Positions 3,153 through 35,260 of a stretch of 64,000 nt of DNA are shown here, one piece after another. Source of the DNA: Nitrospirota bacterium (GTDB lineage: Bacteria; Nitrospirota; Thermodesulfovibrionia; UBA6902); NCBI GenBank assembly GCA_016217725.1, contig JACRHB010000220.1, forward strand, positions 11,970 to 75,969, written 5' to 3'. Numbering within the stretch: the stretch's first letter is position 1; each line of letters starts with the position of its first letter. Under the pieces are notes generated by a model, which had not been told where the DNA came from, did no database searches, and saw nothing but the letters and a program-made list of their open reading frames with translations. The translations under genes and the position numbers were made by a program.

Positions 3153-3161
3153 CAAATAAAT

Positions 3162-3213
3162 AAAGTTGTTAGTTGTTAGTTTTTAGTCTAACAACTAACA
3201 ACTAACAACTTTA
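3162..3213. terminator. perfect palindrome (GTTGTTAG)n / (CTAACAAC)n between lysS and lolC; terminator-like hairpin
   Basis: aaagttgttagttgttagtttttagtctaacaactaacaactaacaacttt; the same word-palindrome recurs at 11652-11710. Confidence 0.6.
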
Positions 3214-6424: not shown

Positions 6425-6479
6425 GTAGCACCCCCGTTAACCGGGGGCGGTTATCGCCGGGGATAAACCCCGACGCTGC
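6425..6479. repeat. twin-hairpin element (family of 3 GC-stem/AT-loop twin-hairpin elements; the other two share a GTAGCG...CGCTAC frame, at 10500-10555 and 35205-35260)
   Basis: gtagcacccccgttaaccgggggcggttatcgccggggataaaccccgacgctgc: two adjacent G/C stems with 4-nt AT loops. Confidence 0.55.
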
Positions 6480-6605
6480 CGAAAGCAAGGTTATTGTGAT
6501 TGATATGGACAAAGAAGGCGTTCCGAATAGTCGCAACGCCTTCTTTTAAGCAATCTGTTCTGCTGCTGAATTAATTAGAGTCTATCCATAAACTCAAACA
6601 TTAAG

Positions 6606-6690
6606 CCGTCATTCCCGCAGTCTTTTGAGCGGGAATCCAGTCTTTTAAATAAGCTCTGGCTGCCCGATTACTGACTTCGGGCATGACGAA
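6606..6690. mobile_element. ~85-bp MITE-like element with GTCATTCCCG terminal inverted repeats and two internal hairpins (copies at 19926-20004 and 41897-41977)
   Basis: ccgtcattcccgcagtcttttgagcgggaatccag...gcccgattactgacttcgggcatgacg; the TIR cgtcat(t/g)cccg is shared by all three copies. Confidence 0.55.
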
Positions 6691-8299: not shown

Positions 8300-9640
8300 T
8301 CATCCTTCCAGCTTTCTCATTATCTCCATAAATCCCGGGAAAGACGTATTAATGCAATCCGTGTCGGAGACCACCGTCTCTCCGTCAGCCAAAAGCCCGG
8401 CGACAGCCAGCGACATTGCGATCCTGTGGTCGCCATAGCTTTGGACCACGGCGGATCTTAACTTTTCCCTACCTTCAATGATAAGGCCGTCTTCAAGCTC
8501 CGCAACATTGACCCCCATCTTCCGCAGCTCCGAAGCAACGGTCGCTATTCTGTCCGATTCCTTCACCCTCAATTCCTTTGCCCCGGTTATCTTTGTTTTT
8601 CCCTGAGCCAATGCCGCAGCTACGCAAAGAATCGGGAATTCGTCTATGGTCTTTGGAACCATCTCGCCGCCGAGATCTATCCCCGAAAGAGTTGAGTGTT
8701 TAACATAAATATCCGCAACGGGCTCTCCGGAGACTTCTCTCTCATTTTCGAGTCTGATGTCGGCGCCCATTGTCTGAAGTATCTCAAGCAACCCCGTTCT
8801 TGTCGGATTGACCCCGGTGTTTTTTATCAATATCTCCGAGCCGGGGACCAATATGCCGGCAGCGATGAAAAAAGCAGCCGATGAGAAATCCGCCGGCACG
8901 GTTAAATCCTGAGGACTTAATACAGTCCTCCCTTTAACGCGTGCCGTTGAACCCTCGACTTTTATCTCTGCTCCTGCCGCTTTCAACATGCGTTCGGTAT
9001 GGTCACGAGACTTTTCAGGCTCAGTTACGGTTGTAACGCCGTCGCAGTAAAGACCGGCAAGCAGAATGGCTGATTTAACCTGTGCGCTTGCAACGGGAGA
9101 TTTATAAGTTATCGGCTTGAGCTCCCCGCCCGTTACACTTAAAGGGGGATAACCGTTTTCCGATTTAAACACCGCGCCCATCTGAGTCAGAGGCTCCATT
9201 ACCCTTCTCATAGGCCTGCGTGTTAATGAGGCGTCGCCTTTCAACATTGCAGAGAACGGCTGACCCGCAAGGACGCCGCAGAGAAGTCTCATCGTTGTTC
9301 CTGAATTCCCGCAGTCTATGTCGCCTTGCGGCTTTCGCAAGCCCGATAGCCCGTTACCGTTGATTATTACTACCCCCCCTTGTTCCCCCCTTAGCAAGGG
9401 GGGGATGGGGGGGTGACTTCTGACTTCTGACTTCTGACTTCTGACTTCTATCTCCACCCCCATCTGTCTGAACGCCCCGACGGTGCTGAGGGGGTCTTCC
9501 GCGTGCAGGAAATTCCTTATAACGCTTTTGCCTTCTGCAAGGGCTGAAAGTATAACGGCGCGATGGGAGATCGATTTGTCCGGCGGGGGGATGAGCTCAC
9601 CGCGCAGAGGGTTTGTGAATTTAATTCTAATCTGATCCAA
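8300..9640 (-). CDS. aroA: 3-phosphoshikimate 1-carboxyvinyltransferase (EPSP synthase), with an in-frame ~23-aa repeat-derived insertion
   Basis: 446 aa; class II EPSPS motifs (ISHRAVILSAL, DCGNSGTTMRLL, RVKESDR); the extra loop VRSQKSEVRSHPPIPPLLRGEQG is encoded by the palindromic/tandem repeat at 9373-9448. Confidence 0.95.
   Translation of the reverse strand: MDQIRIKFTNPLRGELIPPPDKSISHRAVILSALAEGKSVIRNFLHAEDPLSTVGAFRQMGVEIEVRSQKSEVRSHPPIPPLLRGEQGGVVIINGNGLSGLRKPQGDIDCGNSGTTMRLLCGVLAGQPFSAMLKGDASLTRRPMRRVMEPLTQMGAVFKSENGYPPLSVTGGELKPITYKSPVASAQVKSAILLAGLYCDGVTTVTEPEKSRDHTERMLKAAGAEIKVEGSTARVKGRTVLSPQDLTVPADFSSAAFFIAAGILVPGSEILIKNTGVNPTRTGLLEILQTMGADIRLENEREVSGEPVADIYVKHSTLSGIDLGGEMVPKTIDEFPILCVAAALAQGKTKITGAKELRVKESDRIATVASELRKMGVNVAELEDGLIIEGREKLRSAVVQSYGDHRIAMSLAVAGLLADGETVVSDTDCINTSFPGFMEIMRKLEG
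9373..9448. repeat. G-rich palindrome plus (TTCTGAC)n tandem repeat embedded in-frame in aroA
   Basis: cccccccttgttccccccttagcaagggggggatgggggggtgacttctgacttctgacttctgacttc; the same style as the intergenic hairpin repeats. Confidence 0.7.
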
Positions 9641-10499: not shown

Positions 10500-10555
10500 G
10501 TAGCGTCGGGGTTAATCCCCGACGATGAACGCCCCCGATAAACGAGGGCGCTACG
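10500..10555. repeat. GTAGCG...CGCTAC twin-hairpin element between tyrA and hisC
   Basis: gtagcgtcggggttaatccccgacgatgaacgcccccgataaacgagggcgctac. Confidence 0.55.
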
Positions 10556-11648
10556 TACGGGCGGGTTTTAAACCCGCCCCTTCTTCCTTCAACGCTTCCA
10601 TAAATCTCTTATTCTCCTCAGGGAGTCCTATTGTAACACGGACTGCGCCGGCTCCCATCGGTCTTATGATGACCCCCTTTTGAAGAAGGTCGTTGTACAG
10701 TTTGAAAGCCGTATCTTTTTTCAAAGGGATATAAATGAAATTTGCCTCTGTCGGAACGTAATCCATACCCAAAGCTTCAAGCTCCTTGTAAAGATATTTT
10801 TTGCCTCTTTCGTTTATCCTTTTGGTCTTTGCAAGGTGCTTCTCGTCTTTCAATGCCGCAAGGGCGGCCTTCTGCGCCGGAGAGTTTATGTTGAACGGCT
10901 GCCGCACCTTGTTCATTTCTGTAATTATGGATGCCTTTGCAATTGCATACCCTATCCTGAGACCGGCAAGACCGTATATTTTAGAAAAGGTCCTAAGGAT
11001 AAGTATATCCCTGTCCTGCCTGAAATACTTCATGCCGTCCGCATAATCCGGCGCAGAGACATATTCATAGTATGCTTCATCAACGACCACGAGTACCCCT
11101 TCGGGAATCTTCTCCATAAAGGCGTCCATTTCATCCTTTGTATTTATCGTTCCCGTAGGGTTATTGGGATTTGCAATAAAAATTATCTTTGTCTTTTCCG
11201 TTATCCTTGAAGCCATCTCCTGAAGGTCATGCCGCTGCCCTTTAAGCGGCACAATTATATTGTTGCCGTGCGCCGCCTGAGCAATCGAGGAGTATACGAC
11301 AAAAGAGGGGTGCGCCATTAACGCCTCGTCTCCGGGAGCGAGGAACGTCCTCACCGCCAATTCTATAATCTCATTAGAGCCGTTGCCGAATATTATCTCA
11401 TCCGGGCTGACCCGCAATTTCTCCGACAAGGCCTGACGGAGATAATGGCAGCTTCCGTCAGGATATCTGTTCAGGTCTTTTAAACCCTTGCGAAGCGCCT
11501 GGATTGCGAGAGGCGACGGGCCGAGAGGGTTTTCATTCGATGCAAGCTTTATCGAGCCTTTAATCCCCAGCTCCCGCTCAAGCTCTTCCAACGGCTTGCC
11601 CGGGACGTAAGGCGTTAAGGTTTTTATGTGTTCGGGGGCGTATATCAT
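10551..11648 (-). CDS. hisC: histidinol-phosphate / aromatic aminotransferase (class II PLP aminotransferase); the C-terminal 9 aa are encoded by a palindromic repeat
   Basis: 365 aa; ...KLASNENPLGPSP..., ...TFSKIYGLAGLRIGY (PLP lysine region); the C-terminus ...EEGAGLKPART comes from the gggcgggttttaaacccgccc element. Confidence 0.9.
   Translation of the reverse strand: MIYAPEHIKTLTPYVPGKPLEELERELGIKGSIKLASNENPLGPSPLAIQALRKGLKDLNRYPDGSCHYLRQALSEKLRVSPDEIIFGNGSNEIIELAVRTFLAPGDEALMAHPSFVVYSSIAQAAHGNNIIVPLKGQRHDLQEMASRITEKTKIIFIANPNNPTGTINTKDEMDAFMEKIPEGVLVVVDEAYYEYVSAPDYADGMKYFRQDRDILILRTFSKIYGLAGLRIGYAIAKASIITEMNKVRQPFNINSPAQKAALAALKDEKHLAKTKRINERGKKYLYKELEALGMDYVPTEANFIYIPLKKDTAFKLYNDLLQKGVIIRPMGAGAVRVTIGLPEENKRFMEALKEEGAGLKPART
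10558..10595. repeat. palindrome GGGCGGGTTTTAAACCCGCCC(CTTCTTCCTTCA), copy 1 (the hisC 3' end is encoded inside it); copy 2 at 14257-14294 lies in-frame inside the Mo-enzyme gene
   Basis: A ~35-nt block shared with 14257-14294; both encode ..EGAGLKPA.. on the minus strand. Confidence 0.7.
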
Positions 11649-11651
11649 GAG

Positions 11652-11710
11652 GAAGTTGTTAGTTGTTAGTTGTTAGTCCAAAAACTAAAAACTAACAACT
11701 AACAACTTTT
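11652..11710. repeat. (GTTGTTAG)n/(CTAACAAC)n palindrome between pheA and hisC (same family as 3162-3213)
   Basis: gaagttgttagttgttagttgttagtccaaaaactaaaaactaacaactaacaactttt. Confidence 0.65.
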
Positions 11711-13047: not shown

Positions 13048-13126
13048 GAGTTAAGAGTTAAGAGTTAAGAGTTAAGAGTTGAGAGTTAACGGGCTCTAAA
13101 ACTTTTAACTTTTAACTTTCAACTTC
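13048..13126. repeat. (GAGTTA)n ... (AACTTTTA)n imperfect palindromic word-repeat; overlaps the stop of the Mo-oxidoreductase gene
   Basis: gagttaagagttaagagttaagagttaagagttgagagttaacgggctctaaaacttttaacttttaactttcaacttc. Confidence 0.6.
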
Positions 13127-16100
13127 TTTAATCATCCTCACCATCACGTCCCCGAACCCGGGCATGCCGGTGAAAGGGGAAAGGTTATCCGGATCGAGGC
13201 ATTCATTGATATTCGGAATGTATTCGGAGACATTATTTATAAAACCCGGGCCGGAAGCCTTTTGTCCGCCGGGACCGAATGCGGTCTTGATGACGCCCGG
13301 CATTACTTCTTCCGTCAGAAAAACTTTCCCGCTCACCCGCTTTTTGAAGGGCGTTTCGAGCGCTATGACGTCTCCGTTTTTAACACCCAGCCGCTCGCCG
13401 TCGGAATTATTCACGGCTAAGACGGGAATGGAGCCCCCTTCATCCAGCCGCTTCATGCACTCCGTCTCCGTTTCCGCAAGATACGGGCAGACCGCCGTCA
13501 TCGTCATTGAATGATGGACCCTGCCTGTAATCAACTGGAACGGATACTCCCTGCTTATCTGTTTGTATTGTGAATTCTTCGGATTCCATTTGCAGTCTCT
13601 CCAGTAAAAGGTCGTCGGGAAACCGGTCCCGAGCCTTCTGTTGCTGTTTTCGAGGTAACCGAACTTGAATTCAAATTTCCCTGAGCCGGTCTTCGGATAT
13701 ACGCCGGATGAGGCGCCGGTTGACTTTCTGTGCCTGTAATAGCTTGCAGGCCATACCGCTGCGCCGTTATGTTTTCTGAGCCAGTCCACTGTGAGCGGTT
13801 CGCCCTGTTTGAGGAGCTTCTTTCCCCAGACGGCGGTCGGATTATCCGGTGCGCCGGTTATCAAACAGCCTTCCGGCAGATCCGGGTAAGGGAGCGGTTC
13901 TCCGACATTGTAATACCCCGGCGTTTCGGCAAGGAGCTCATTTATAAAATCCTCTTCTTCGTTATATCTCCGCCCGAAATCTTCCGCCCTGACGTCGGGA
14001 TCGCCGTTTCTTACTAATGCTTCGGAAAGGGTAAGCATAATTTCAAAGGGAGTCCTTGCTTCATAAAGAGGCTTGATTACCTGATCCCTGATCGCTATTT
14101 CCGGGCTCATTGTGTAAACGTCGCTGACTCCCATCCTTTCGAGATAACCGGCTTCGGGCAGAATTATGTCCGCATATTTCCCGGTTTCAGAAATGTGCGT
14201 GTCGATAAAGACTATAAGCTCAAGCTGGTATCTGCTTAAGGATTCCCCTTCATCCGTAGGGGCGGGTTTTAAACCCGCCCCTTCTCCTTCATCAAAAGGA
14301 AGGGGCAGGAGATCGTTTTTCAAGGTCAAGGCGTCAATCCAGTCCGGGGTGCTGCCTGCCGTCATGACGGGATTGCCCGCCCTTGTTATAAAGGCCTTTA
14401 CCGGGTAGGAATAGTCTTTAAAGACCCCGTGCTTTAGCTTTATCCCGTCCCTTATTTTTTGCGGCAGATCGGCCAACACGCCTTTCCATGCAGCCGGGAA
14501 ATCGCCGAAAAGATCTTTATGAAGCCCGGAAAGCTTGTCCGAAACCTCGCTCCCGTCAATATTTCTGCCGACGACCTTTTCCAGAAAATCTTTTCCTGCG
14601 GCTTTATCCCCCCTCCGGGGCTTTTGTGAATCGATGAATACAAGCCCTCCCGGCGTATCGATATTGCCCGTTATCAAGCAGAGCGCCGTCATGAGTATCG
14701 ATGAAACGTCGCCGTTTGCATGGTGTGAAACGCCGTGCATCCCCAGCTCGATCGAGGCGGGCTTTGTGCTGCCGAAAAGGTGCGATATCCTGATGATGTT
14801 TTCCGCGGATATCCCCGTCTTCTCCGCCGCCCATTCAAGGGTGAAAAATTTCATATCGTTTGAAGGGTCTCTCTTTTCCGAGTATGAAAGGAGCGCGTCT
14901 TTGAATTCCTCCCAGCCGTTTGTGTAATTTTTTATGAAATCGTGATCTATATATTTCTGCTCCGGATCATTCTGGATGATGTAATGGAGCATTGCCGCAA
15001 GCAGCGCCGCATCCGTCCCCGGTGTTATGGGAAGCCATATGTCCGCATGAGCGGCGGAATTGGTATATGCGGGGTCAATCACAATATACATGCATCCGTT
15101 TTCTTTTGCCGCAGGTATCCCCCGGGACATGTAATTGAATCTCGTCGCCACAAACGGGTTGGCCCCGAGATTCAGGATGAGCTTTGCGTCATGCTCCCTT
15201 TTGAGATGCAGCCCGCCGTCGTCATCTCTGATCAATAAAGGCCGTTGAACGTCGGGCAGCGGTCTTTCATCGCCTAACATAAGGCCCTGTCCCCATCTGC
15301 GGTTGGGATCGCAAATGCTGCCGTGGTTGTATGTGTTCGGAGTGCCGAAGGCATGAAACAGCCTGTAATACGCCTCTCTGTCGGTCACGTCGCCGCAGTC
15401 TAAAAAAACGGATTCCGCCCCGTATCTGTTTTTTATCTCGAGCAGCTTCTTTGCAATATAATCGGAAGCCTCCTCCCACGTGATTTCCTTCCATTTATCC
15501 TCGCCCCTTTCCCCGGTCCTTATCAGAGGGGTTTTTATCCTGTGAGGAGAGTATGTAAGCTGCAGCCCGGAAGCGCCCTTTGCGCAGAAGGCCCCGTTGT
15601 TTACAAGTGTATGCGGACTGCCGTATATTTTTTTGGCAATGCCGTTGTCAACAAGCACGGATATCCCGCATTCGGAAGGGCACATGGCGCATGATGAATA
15701 TCTTGATTTTAATGTGCCTTCTGTCTGTTCAGGAGATTTCTTTACCTTAATGCGTCGGGTAGATTTTGTGTCTGAGGGGATCGTATAATCCTTCAGCGGA
15801 GCATTGCAGACGTCACCTTTAAAGATGTAAAAGACCGAGGGGTTGGTCCCGAGCTCGGGATTGAGGACTTTTAACTGATGCTTGGAAAGCTCAGCCGATA
15901 TTTCACTTTTGGGGTCGTTTATGTCGCCGAAAAGCATCGCCCTCCCCATGCAGCTCTGCGCACAGACTGGCTGAAGACCCCTTGTAATTCTTTCATAGCA
16001 GAAATCGCATTTCTCGGCCTGTCCCGTGCTCGGGCTTATCTCGATCGCGTTATAAGGGCATTTATCCTCGCACATCTTGCAGCCGATACAGCCGCTCCCA

Positions 16101-16369
16101 TTCAAGATGACGACGCCGTCCTGATTTTTATAAAGGGCTTTCTCCTTGCATTCTTCAATGCACGGTGCAGTATCGCAGTGATTGCAGAGACGGGGAAGGA
16201 AAACTTTTTTGATTTGCGGATAACCGCCGGACCGATAAGTCTCAACCCTGCAGCGGAAAGCTCCAAACGGGATATTATATTCAGCCTTGCACGTTACCTG
16301 ACAGGCGTGGCATCCGATGCACCTGTCGAGGTCGATCAACATTCCGTATCTCTTTTGATGTTTCGCCAT
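13112..16369 (-). CDS. molybdopterin (MopB-family) oxidoreductase fused to an N-terminal 4x[4Fe-4S] ferredoxin module (PsrB/PsrA-like fusion); no Tat signal
   Basis: 1085 aa; the N-terminal ~190 aa carry four CxxCxxCxxxCP ferredoxin motifs (CIGCHACQVTC...CNHCDTAPCIEEC...CIGCKMCEDKCP...); then the MopB CxxCxxxC (CAMCPSECG) and Molybdop_Fe4S4, Molybdopterin and Molydop_binding regions. Confidence 0.85.
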   Translation of the reverse strand: MAKHQKRYGMLIDLDRCIGCHACQVTCKAEYNIPFGAFRCRVETYRSGGYPQIKKVFLPRLCNHCDTAPCIEECKEKALYKNQDGVVILNGSGCIGCKMCEDKCPYNAIEISPSTGQAEKCDFCYERITRGLQPVCAQSCMGRAMLFGDINDPKSEISAELSKHQLKVLNPELGTNPSVFYIFKGDVCNAPLKDYTIPSDTKSTRRIKVKKSPEQTEGTLKSRYSSCAMCPSECGISVLVDNGIAKKIYGSPHTLVNNGAFCAKGASGLQLTYSPHRIKTPLIRTGERGEDKWKEITWEEASDYIAKKLLEIKNRYGAESVFLDCGDVTDREAYYRLFHAFGTPNTYNHGSICDPNRRWGQGLMLGDERPLPDVQRPLLIRDDDGGLHLKREHDAKLILNLGANPFVATRFNYMSRGIPAAKENGCMYIVIDPAYTNSAAHADIWLPITPGTDAALLAAMLHYIIQNDPEQKYIDHDFIKNYTNGWEEFKDALLSYSEKRDPSNDMKFFTLEWAAEKTGISAENIIRISHLFGSTKPASIELGMHGVSHHANGDVSSILMTALCLITGNIDTPGGLVFIDSQKPRRGDKAAGKDFLEKVVGRNIDGSEVSDKLSGLHKDLFGDFPAAWKGVLADLPQKIRDGIKLKHGVFKDYSYPVKAFITRAGNPVMTAGSTPDWIDALTLKNDLLPLPFDEGEGAGLKPAPTDEGESLSRYQLELIVFIDTHISETGKYADIILPEAGYLERMGVSDVYTMSPEIAIRDQVIKPLYEARTPFEIMLTLSEALVRNGDPDVRAEDFGRRYNEEEDFINELLAETPGYYNVGEPLPYPDLPEGCLITGAPDNPTAVWGKKLLKQGEPLTVDWLRKHNGAAVWPASYYRHRKSTGASSGVYPKTGSGKFEFKFGYLENSNRRLGTGFPTTFYWRDCKWNPKNSQYKQISREYPFQLITGRVHHSMTMTAVCPYLAETETECMKRLDEGGSIPVLAVNNSDGERLGVKNGDVIALETPFKKRVSGKVFLTEEVMPGVIKTAFGPGGQKASGPGFINNVSEYIPNINECLDPDNLSPFTGMPGFGDVMVRMIKEVES

Positions 16370-35111: not shown

Positions 35112-35204
35112 TCCGTCTCTCCTTTATAAAAGCTGTAAGACTTTATCAATATAAGCTGATTATGTCAATGAATAAGAAAAGTTAAAAGTTAAAAGTTGAA
35201 AGTG

Positions 35205-35260
35205 TAGCGTTGGGGTTTATCCCCAACGAAAAAATCGCCCCCAATAAATGAGGGCGCTAC
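35205..35260. repeat. GTAGCG...CGCTAC twin-hairpin element, copy 3, flanked by (AAAAGTT)n words
   Basis: gtagcgttggggtttatccccaacgaaaaaatcgcccccaataaatgagggcgctac, preceded by aaaagttaaaagttaaaagttgaaagt. Confidence 0.55.

Follow-up and report, generated by a model that had tools for sequence, protein, structure and literature searches.

Double-foot REP palindromes, probably placed by a RAYT, lie in frame in hisC and a molybdopterin oxidoreductase gene of a Nitrospirota bacterium

The stretch of DNA analysed here (the window) comprises 64,000 nucleotides from an uncultured Nitrospirota bacterium (contig JACRHB010000220.1, positions 11,970 to 75,969 of the forward strand), and it carries the same short palindrome in frame in two genes, hisC, which encodes histidinol-phosphate aminotransferase, and a gene for a molybdopterin oxidoreductase (the Mo-enzyme). 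Both sites are best explained as copies of a 29-nt "double-foot" repetitive extragenic palindrome (REP), in which a G+C-rich hairpin stands between a GTAG and a CTAC foot. REPs of this type are associated with REP-associated tyrosine transposases (RAYTs) of group 4, also called TnpA-REP subclass 2.4, and such an enzyme probably placed the copies. The identity of the two copies as double-foot REPs is well supported, whereas their placement by a RAYT is what we infer from the company that the family keeps in other genomes. In the description of subclass 2.4 by Quentin, Siguier, Chandler and Fichant (2018), double-foot REPs begin with a 5' GT[AG]G, close with a 3' C[TC]AC, and have a stem whose base is formed by three G-C pairs (PMC6006769). 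The shared palindrome had been noticed from the letters of the window alone, in what we call the sequence-only reading, and the observation is real.

The core of the palindrome is a 21-mer, GGGCGGGTTTTAAACCCGCCC, found at 10559-10579 and at 14260-14280; it forms a hairpin with an odd centre (10+1+10), no such match is expected by chance, and none occurred in 100 shuffles. The sequence-only reading described an element of about 35 nt around this 21-nt palindrome. The 21-mer stands, but the natural repeat unit is a 29-nt palindrome with four-base feet (consensus GTAGGGGCGGGTTT-T-AAACCCGCCCCTAC), whose stem, GGGCGGGTTT/AAACCCGCCC, folds with -18 to -22 kcal/mol (z about -4.3). Copy 1 (GTACGGGCGGGTTTTAAACCCGCCCCTTC, 10555..10583) has both feet one base off the consensus, GTAC and CTTC, is translated on the minus strand as EGAGLKPART, and forms an RNA hairpin of -18.1 kcal/mol (z -4.2). 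Copy 2 (GTAGGGGCGGGTTTTAAACCCGCCCCTTC, 14256..14284), in which the GTAG foot is intact and the other has degenerated to CTTC, is translated on the minus strand as EGAGLKPAPT and forms a hairpin of -22.1 kcal/mol (z -4.5). With their mutated feet, both copies are probably immobile relics. The translations bear out that the two copies share strand and frame, as had been pointed out; however, the 29-mer can be translated without a stop in three of its six frames (as VGAGFKPAPT, VGAGLKPAPT or RGGFKTRPY), whereas TAG or TAA blocks the rest, so that a shared frame is a one-in-three event given that both copies lie in open reading frames (ORFs), and it is weak evidence. The hisC copy was also recovered in an independent assembly of run SRR12113407, with 99.75% identity over 2 kb, and is thus not an assembly artefact.

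The palindrome is not confined to the window. A scan that covered one genome per species, with counts referring to loci among the matches listed, found the exact 21-mer at no fewer than 120 loci in about 20 phyla, always between unrelated flanks; this settles the question of uniqueness raised by the sequence-only reading, and together with orthologues that do not have the segments it upholds the view of a mobile palindrome tolerated inside ORFs. Among the hosts are Dehalococcoidia, Thermodesulfobacteriota, Nitrospirota, Omnitrophota, Patescibacteria and Planctomycetota, as well as Alpha- and Gammaproteobacteria, Bacteroidales, Spirochaetes and Acidobacteriota. Among 130 aligned copies the left foot is GTAG in 87 and the right foot CTAC in 76, both feet are present in 56, and similarity between flanks ends at the feet. 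Direct repeats flank 10 of the 130 copies and 47 of 644 mismatched controls, which is no excess, and this suggests that the family as a whole inserts without target-site duplication, with the Mo-enzyme copy as the exception. Another GT[AG]G hairpin lies within 80 nt of 25 of 131 copies, compared to 67 of 2255 random positions. Within single genomes, two copies are present in the 64-kb window and at least five loci in each of the metagenome-assembled genomes (MAGs) CAVPIX, JBFLXM and JACOVV. Elsewhere the 29-mer is again found in frame within genes, namely those for a Mur ligase, a His_Phos_1 phosphatase, PrmC, a VWA-TPR protein and a GH108 lysozyme, and these in-frame copies of other phyla are mostly located in interdomain linkers. 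REPs fused with half-REPs of the same family or nested in them (e.g., GTAGGGGCGGGTTCGCTT-GTAAGGGCGGGTTTTAAACCCGCCCCTAC) were seen at locus L089 (1560-1650) and at locus L038 (5534-5590 and 5190-5250), which shows the same composite architecture within a RAYT gene and downstream of it.

The connection to RAYTs comes from the neighbourhood of the copies in other genomes. A Y1_Tnp gene is present in 4 of the 120 listed loci (PF01797 above threshold; NF047646, the NCBIfam model "REP-associated tyrosine transposase", with an E-value of 3e-19). When the ORFs found up to 2.5 kb from any of 131 copies were clustered, the Y1/HUH transposase was the only protein family specifically associated with them; other larger clusters (sigma-54 activators, ABC ATPases and histidine kinases) looked generic when their representative sequences were inspected by eye. 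At the Nitrospirota locus L038 the RAYT-like gene has one REP about 40 nt upstream of the start, another about 40 nt past the stop, and a third in frame directly after the HUH motif. The RAYT-like gene of L055 likewise has an internal in-frame REP, and the RAYT-like gene of L085 is immediately preceded by two REPs that form a pair. The best 120 homologues of the L038 protein all have VGAG[LF]KPAPT, VGAGSEPAPT or a similar peptide in the loop after the HUH motif, a result biased by a query that itself included the REP peptide, and these loops often contain half-units repeated in 15-nt steps. In two further RAYT genes, chosen by protein sequence, the loop was traced to the DNA: in L128 (Thermosynechococcus) it is encoded by the palindrome itself, GTAGGGGCGGGTTTGAAACCCGCCCCTAC, and in L122 (a Nitrospirae MAG) by an inverted REP pair, one member of which has the compensatory changes G>A and C>T (GGGCAGG/CCTGCCC). 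Tandem half-REPs such as VGAGS-VGAGS-VGAGS-EPAPT, or APAPT seven times over, were seen in loops of the RAYT homologues P0241-P0360 (e.g., P0252, P0324, P0326 and P0343), as if the arms had been cut and rejoined repeatedly, or had slipped; in P0334, P0359 and L128 REP peptides are found at the N- or C-terminus.

In the window, hisC (10551..11648, minus strand) ends in copy 1, which makes up its last ten codons, and the protein runs to ...EALKEEGAGLKPART (also given as ...RFMEALKEEGAGLKPART) directly before the stop. The sequence-only reading was right to derive the C-terminal residues from the element, although there are ten of them and not nine, and the stop codon TAG (10551-10553) lies outside copy 1. 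It is provided by the minus-strand GTAG foot (10551-10554) of a neighbouring REPIN-like doublet (REPINs are REP doublets forming hairpins), GTAGCGTCGGGGTTAATCCCCGACG ... CGCCCCCGATAAACGAGGGCGCTAC at 10500..10554, which belongs to a second GTAG REP family and abuts copy 1. An EGAGLKPART-type peptide is present in 0 of 119 HisC orthologues (70-82% identical), whose tails past the conserved ...IEALK consist of 3-10 variable residues. Some of these tails are themselves repeat-like (P0151, P0152, P0129 and P0160; ..LEVRSELLTSYFLL, ..IVGSKAVGSKQ), which suggests that small repeats have struck the 3' end of hisC, and not the same ones in each lineage. A 31-mer of the hisC copy with both mutated feet, GTACGGGCGGGTTTTAAACCCGCCCCTTCT, was also seen in an unrelated context on a metagenome contig (L129, Ga0182030_10015194, 6585-6614).

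The spacer between hisC and tyrA, within the gene string pheA-hisC-tyrA-aroA, is an array that resembles a bacterial interspersed mosaic element (BIME), with three consecutive hairpins and a folding energy of -51.9 kcal/mol (z -4.5). An intrinsic terminator was considered; however, in the sense (minus) direction the hairpin of the 29-nt unit is followed by GTACGTAGCG or CTACGGATGA, and no run of T comes after the hairpins of the spacer, so that a classical terminator is unsupported, and a terminator-like scan was passed by the antisense (plus) strand of copy 1 only. By analogy with the REPs of E. coli, the array would most likely mark an mRNA 3' end or act as a barrier to mRNA decay.

The second copy lies in the gene for the Mo-enzyme (13112..16369, minus strand), a protein of 1085 aa with a fused 4Fe-4S domain, and the segment reads ...LPLPFDEGEGAGLKPAPTDEGESLS... 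(also given as ...KNDLLPLPFDEGEGAGLKPAPTDEGESLSRYQLEL...). The insertion is exactly 39 nt (13 codons) and, together with a bounding repeat, occupies 14243..14293, where the protein reads DEGE-GAGLKPAPT-DEGE; the repeat is a direct one of 12 nt with 11 of 12 positions identical (TTCCCCTTCATC at 14243-14254 and TTCTCCTTCATC at 14282-14293). That the material is extra had been recognized from the sequence alone, but it does not sit directly between conserved blocks. It forms part of a composite variable loop (14237..14311, minus strand; residues about 685-712) in which an older, decayed insert reads LPLPF..DEGESL, and the order in the window is LPLPF-DEGE-[GAGLKPAPT-DEGE]-SL. The closest relatives of this Mo-enzyme have remnants of the LLPAF-NNEEA-GGLL type at this place, which indicates that copy 2 is nested within an older palindrome insert that has decayed. 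Of 57 aligned Mo-enzyme orthologues, 38 are free of any insert and have ALTxKDxxGEYLLELMVFIDTH uninterrupted, two are longer by three residues, and in the remaining 17 the inserts are larger, at 14 to about 90 residues; the alignments with orthologues that the sequence-only reading had proposed as a check thus came out in its favour for both genes. The 17 larger inserts are derived from palindromes of at least three families (NPPLPPF-DKGGE-GGLS, PSPLAGEGKGEG, and KGGFKTRPY/KGGFETRPY). In two of the orthologues, P0003 and P0008, the loop contains the REP of the window too, but read in a different frame (KGGFKTRPY and KGGFETRPY; DNA ATAAGGGCGGGTTTAAAACCCGCCCCTAC and GTAAGGGCGGGTTTGAAACCCGCCCCTAC). 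This suggests insertion at the level of DNA, filtered for open frames, rather than a protein motif. The loop is a recurrent insertion hot spot for different palindromes. It may be disordered, as hinted by an AlphaFold model that is poor overall (mean pLDDT, the predicted local distance difference test score, of 58) and in which residues 687-711 are coil with pLDDT <50.

If a RAYT placed the copies, an enzyme of subclass 2.4 encoded elsewhere in the genome would have acted in trans and mobilised the hairpin as single-stranded DNA. The GTAG would have guided the choice of the cleavage site, and cleavage and strand transfer would have proceeded without duplication; in the reactions of TnpA-REPs studied by Corneloup et al. 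(2021), GTAG is located where IS200/IS605 elements have their guide sequence (PMC8266576). An insertion would have survived only if it was read in one of the three frames without a stop and hit a site able to bear 10-13 extra residues, here the unconserved tail of HisC and a variable loop of the Mo-enzyme, and the intact feet would have been lost subsequently, so that copy 1 now has GTAC/CTTC and copy 2 has GTAG/CTTC.

Several observations weigh against this account. A tblastn search of the 64-kb window found no RAYT or Y1 gene in it; a RAYT-bearing Nitrospirae contig from the same run series (JACPZK010000031.1) has a G+C content of 41%, compared to about 47% for the window, and probably stems from another organism. 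The RAYT-like proteins score 69 bits, below the curated NF047646 cutoff of 80, and the unanimity of the 120 homologues is tempered by the query bias mentioned above. The cleavage and strand transfer of single-stranded REPs in vitro was demonstrated with RAYTs of subclasses other than 2.4 (PMC8266576). The 12-nt direct repeat at the Mo-enzyme copy is not expected for Y1 transposition and is atypical of the family, and the two window copies have in common the rare foot CTTCT and some 10 nt of flanking sequence, a hint that copying was local.

This last point leads to the alternative that survives best, although we consider it somewhat unlikely: both copies are REPs, but the one in the Mo-enzyme gene arose by local templated copying, for example from the hisC copy 3.7 kb away, through template switching mediated by microhomology or through gene conversion over a short tract. 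The copies in the window share a block of 41-42 nt, TGAAGGA(A)GAAGGGGCGGGTTTAAAACCCGCCC(C/G)TACG, which exceeds the 29-nt REP, and the exact 39-nt insertion with its 11/12 repeat stands apart from a family that does not make such repeats. The foot CTTCT is found in only 2 of 130 copies elsewhere, and its two matches among 241 million metagenome records have unrelated flanks, which argues that the shared flank does not mark a widespread sub-family. However, the TTGAAG in hisC, which encodes the L-K of the conserved EALK, is native and present in orthologues that have no REP; the likeness of the flanks may therefore reflect a target that resembles a REP foot (GAAGG compared to GTAGG). Moreover, two copies allow no statistics. 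The alternative concerns the origin of the second copy only and leaves the identity of the element unchanged.

Two further explanations fare much worse. A MITE (miniature inverted-repeat transposon), in which a DDE transposase mobilises a pair of terminal inverted repeats and generates target-site duplications, would account for the perfect inverted repeat and for the direct repeat around the Mo-enzyme copy; nevertheless, it is very improbable, given that flanking direct repeats are not in excess among the 130 copies, that beside them neither a DDE transposase nor any recurrent protein family except the Y1/HUH transposase is found, and that 29 nt is far below the size of MITEs (70-300 bp; PMC3733652). 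The notion that GAGLKPAP is a conserved protein motif, or the DNA a terminator or regulatory hairpin that evolved in place and is not mobile, could appeal to the recurrence of the peptide in many RAYT proteins and to the terminator-like plus strand of the hisC copy, but it is just as improbable, and both the orthologues and the reading frames speak against it: the peptide is missing from the 119 HisC and from most Mo-enzyme orthologues, P0003 and P0008 read the same DNA in another frame, identical DNA occurs between unrelated flanks across phyla, the terminator match is antisense with no T-run in the sense direction, and no Rfam family matches either site (the sole match, "Termite-leu", is at chance level with 21.9 bits against a gathering score of 51).

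Returning to RAYT-driven placement, we mention one extension of it, which we regard as unlikely and offer tentatively. The identity of the 29-mer from cyanobacteria to Nitrospirota might be maintained by an in-frame master copy in the RAYT gene, so that enzyme and substrate would be inherited, and also transferred horizontally, as one; new copies might prefer sites in or beside existing palindromes, at the tips of their hairpins, which would turn loops such as that of the Mo-enzyme into recurrent hot spots and steady suppliers of new peptide segments.

The window contains other repeats as well. The second GTAG REP family, which supplies the stop codon of hisC, is represented by six REPs in three inverted, REPIN-like doublets of about 55 bp (6425-6479, 10500-10554 and 35204-35260), where none would be expected; all are intergenic, and compensatory stem substitutions distinguish the copies. 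Repeats of the heptamer AAAAGTT (35175-35203) directly precede the doublet that starts at 35204. The gene aroA (ORF 8300..9640, minus strand) has a two-part in-frame insert at 9375-9448, of which the first part is a different palindrome, CCCCCTTGTTCCCCCCTT/AAGGGGGGGATGGGGGGG, encoding HPPIPPLLRGEQGG, and the second part consists of five tandem GACTTCT heptamers encoding SEVRSQKSEVRS. The NPPLPPF..KGG..GG palindrome family of aroA is also found in Mo-enzyme orthologues and in the phosphatase of locus L023. A third repeated palindrome, made of AGTTGTT heptamers (AAAGTTGTTAGTTGTTAGTTTTTAG...CTAACAACTAACAACTAACAACTT), occurs twice, at 3161-3213 and at 11652-11710, and one of its copies fills the spacer between pheA and hisC; its sub-threshold matches to models of miRNA precursors are due to the long hairpin.

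Intragenic GTAG REPs have been described in other bacteria, so the phenomenon as such is already known; what the window adds is a Nitrospirae case, with a new host phylum and new host genes, and the current understanding of REPs and RAYTs is unchanged. The practical consequence is for annotation: when proteins of uncultured bacteria contain stretches like GAGLKPAPT, GGFKTRPY or NPPLPPFxKGGxGG, these are passengers that stem from REPs and not functional motifs, and such passengers can shift stop codons and the ends of genes. Beyond this, one exact REP sequence is common to very many phyla, a RAYT subclass bears the REP inside its own gene, and the Mo-enzyme provides a clean example of one protein loop that was struck repeatedly by different palindromes. 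The extra interest of these findings is modest and lies in the identity of the 29-nt REP over about 20 phyla, the hot spot in the Mo-enzyme loop, and the nested insertion with its atypical duplication.

Among known systems, the Rickettsia palindromic elements (RPEs), attributed to Ogata and colleagues in 2000, reportedly lie in frame in many unrelated protein genes and are tolerated there as extra peptide. RPEs are mostly longer than the 29-nt REP, and we know of no dedicated RAYT that serves them. They are also mentioned in the survey by Di Nocera, De Gregorio and Rocco (2013), in which the short RPE-4 and RPE-6 are CGTC-tagged and not GTAG-tagged (PMC3733652). The REPs and BIMEs of E. coli and the REPINs of Pseudomonas share with the elements described here the GTAG head, the hairpin, the inverted doublets and the clusters in intergenic regions of operons, to which the three hairpins between hisC and tyrA may be compared; however, these classical REPs are species-specific, number in the hundreds, are almost entirely extragenic, and have RAYTs of subclasses 2.2, 2.1 and 2.5 (PMC3333891, PMC3116915).

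The same survey defines a super-family of GTAG-tagged REPs, and in several species some of them are contained completely in known ORFs; the TAG stops of flanking ORFs can come from their GTAG ends, and different REPs are found near the same site of orthologous recB genes (PMC3733652). The likeness to our case extends to the GTAG tag, the small palindrome, the dimers, the copies within genes and at ORF ends, the TAG stops, and a shared site comparable to that in recB. The phyla named for that super-family are Proteobacteria, Cyanobacteria, Chloroflexi and the PVC group, with Nitrospirae not listed, and neither GGGCGGG nor GTAGGGG turned up in any sequence when the text of the paper was searched (PMC3733652); a literature search for the REP sequence itself returned unrelated eukaryotic papers only.

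The REPs of TnpA-REP subclass 2.4, which is scattered over many phyla and corresponds to RAYT group 4 of Bertels et al., flank the transposase gene and are also found in frame inside tnpA-REP, between its HUH motif and its Y motif (PMC6006769). While that subclass is plentiful among Cyanobacteria and Bacteroidetes, the host here is a bacterium of the Nitrospirae that has not been cultured; about 20 phyla have one exact 29-mer in common; and the association with RAYT genes comes from other genomes, the 64-kb window itself having none. Nevertheless, both feet, a stem base of three G-C pairs, REPs on either side of the transposase gene as well as in frame within it, and the patchy spread over many phyla are features that the family to which the palindromes of hisC and the Mo-enzyme belong shares with subclass 2.4 (PMC6006769).

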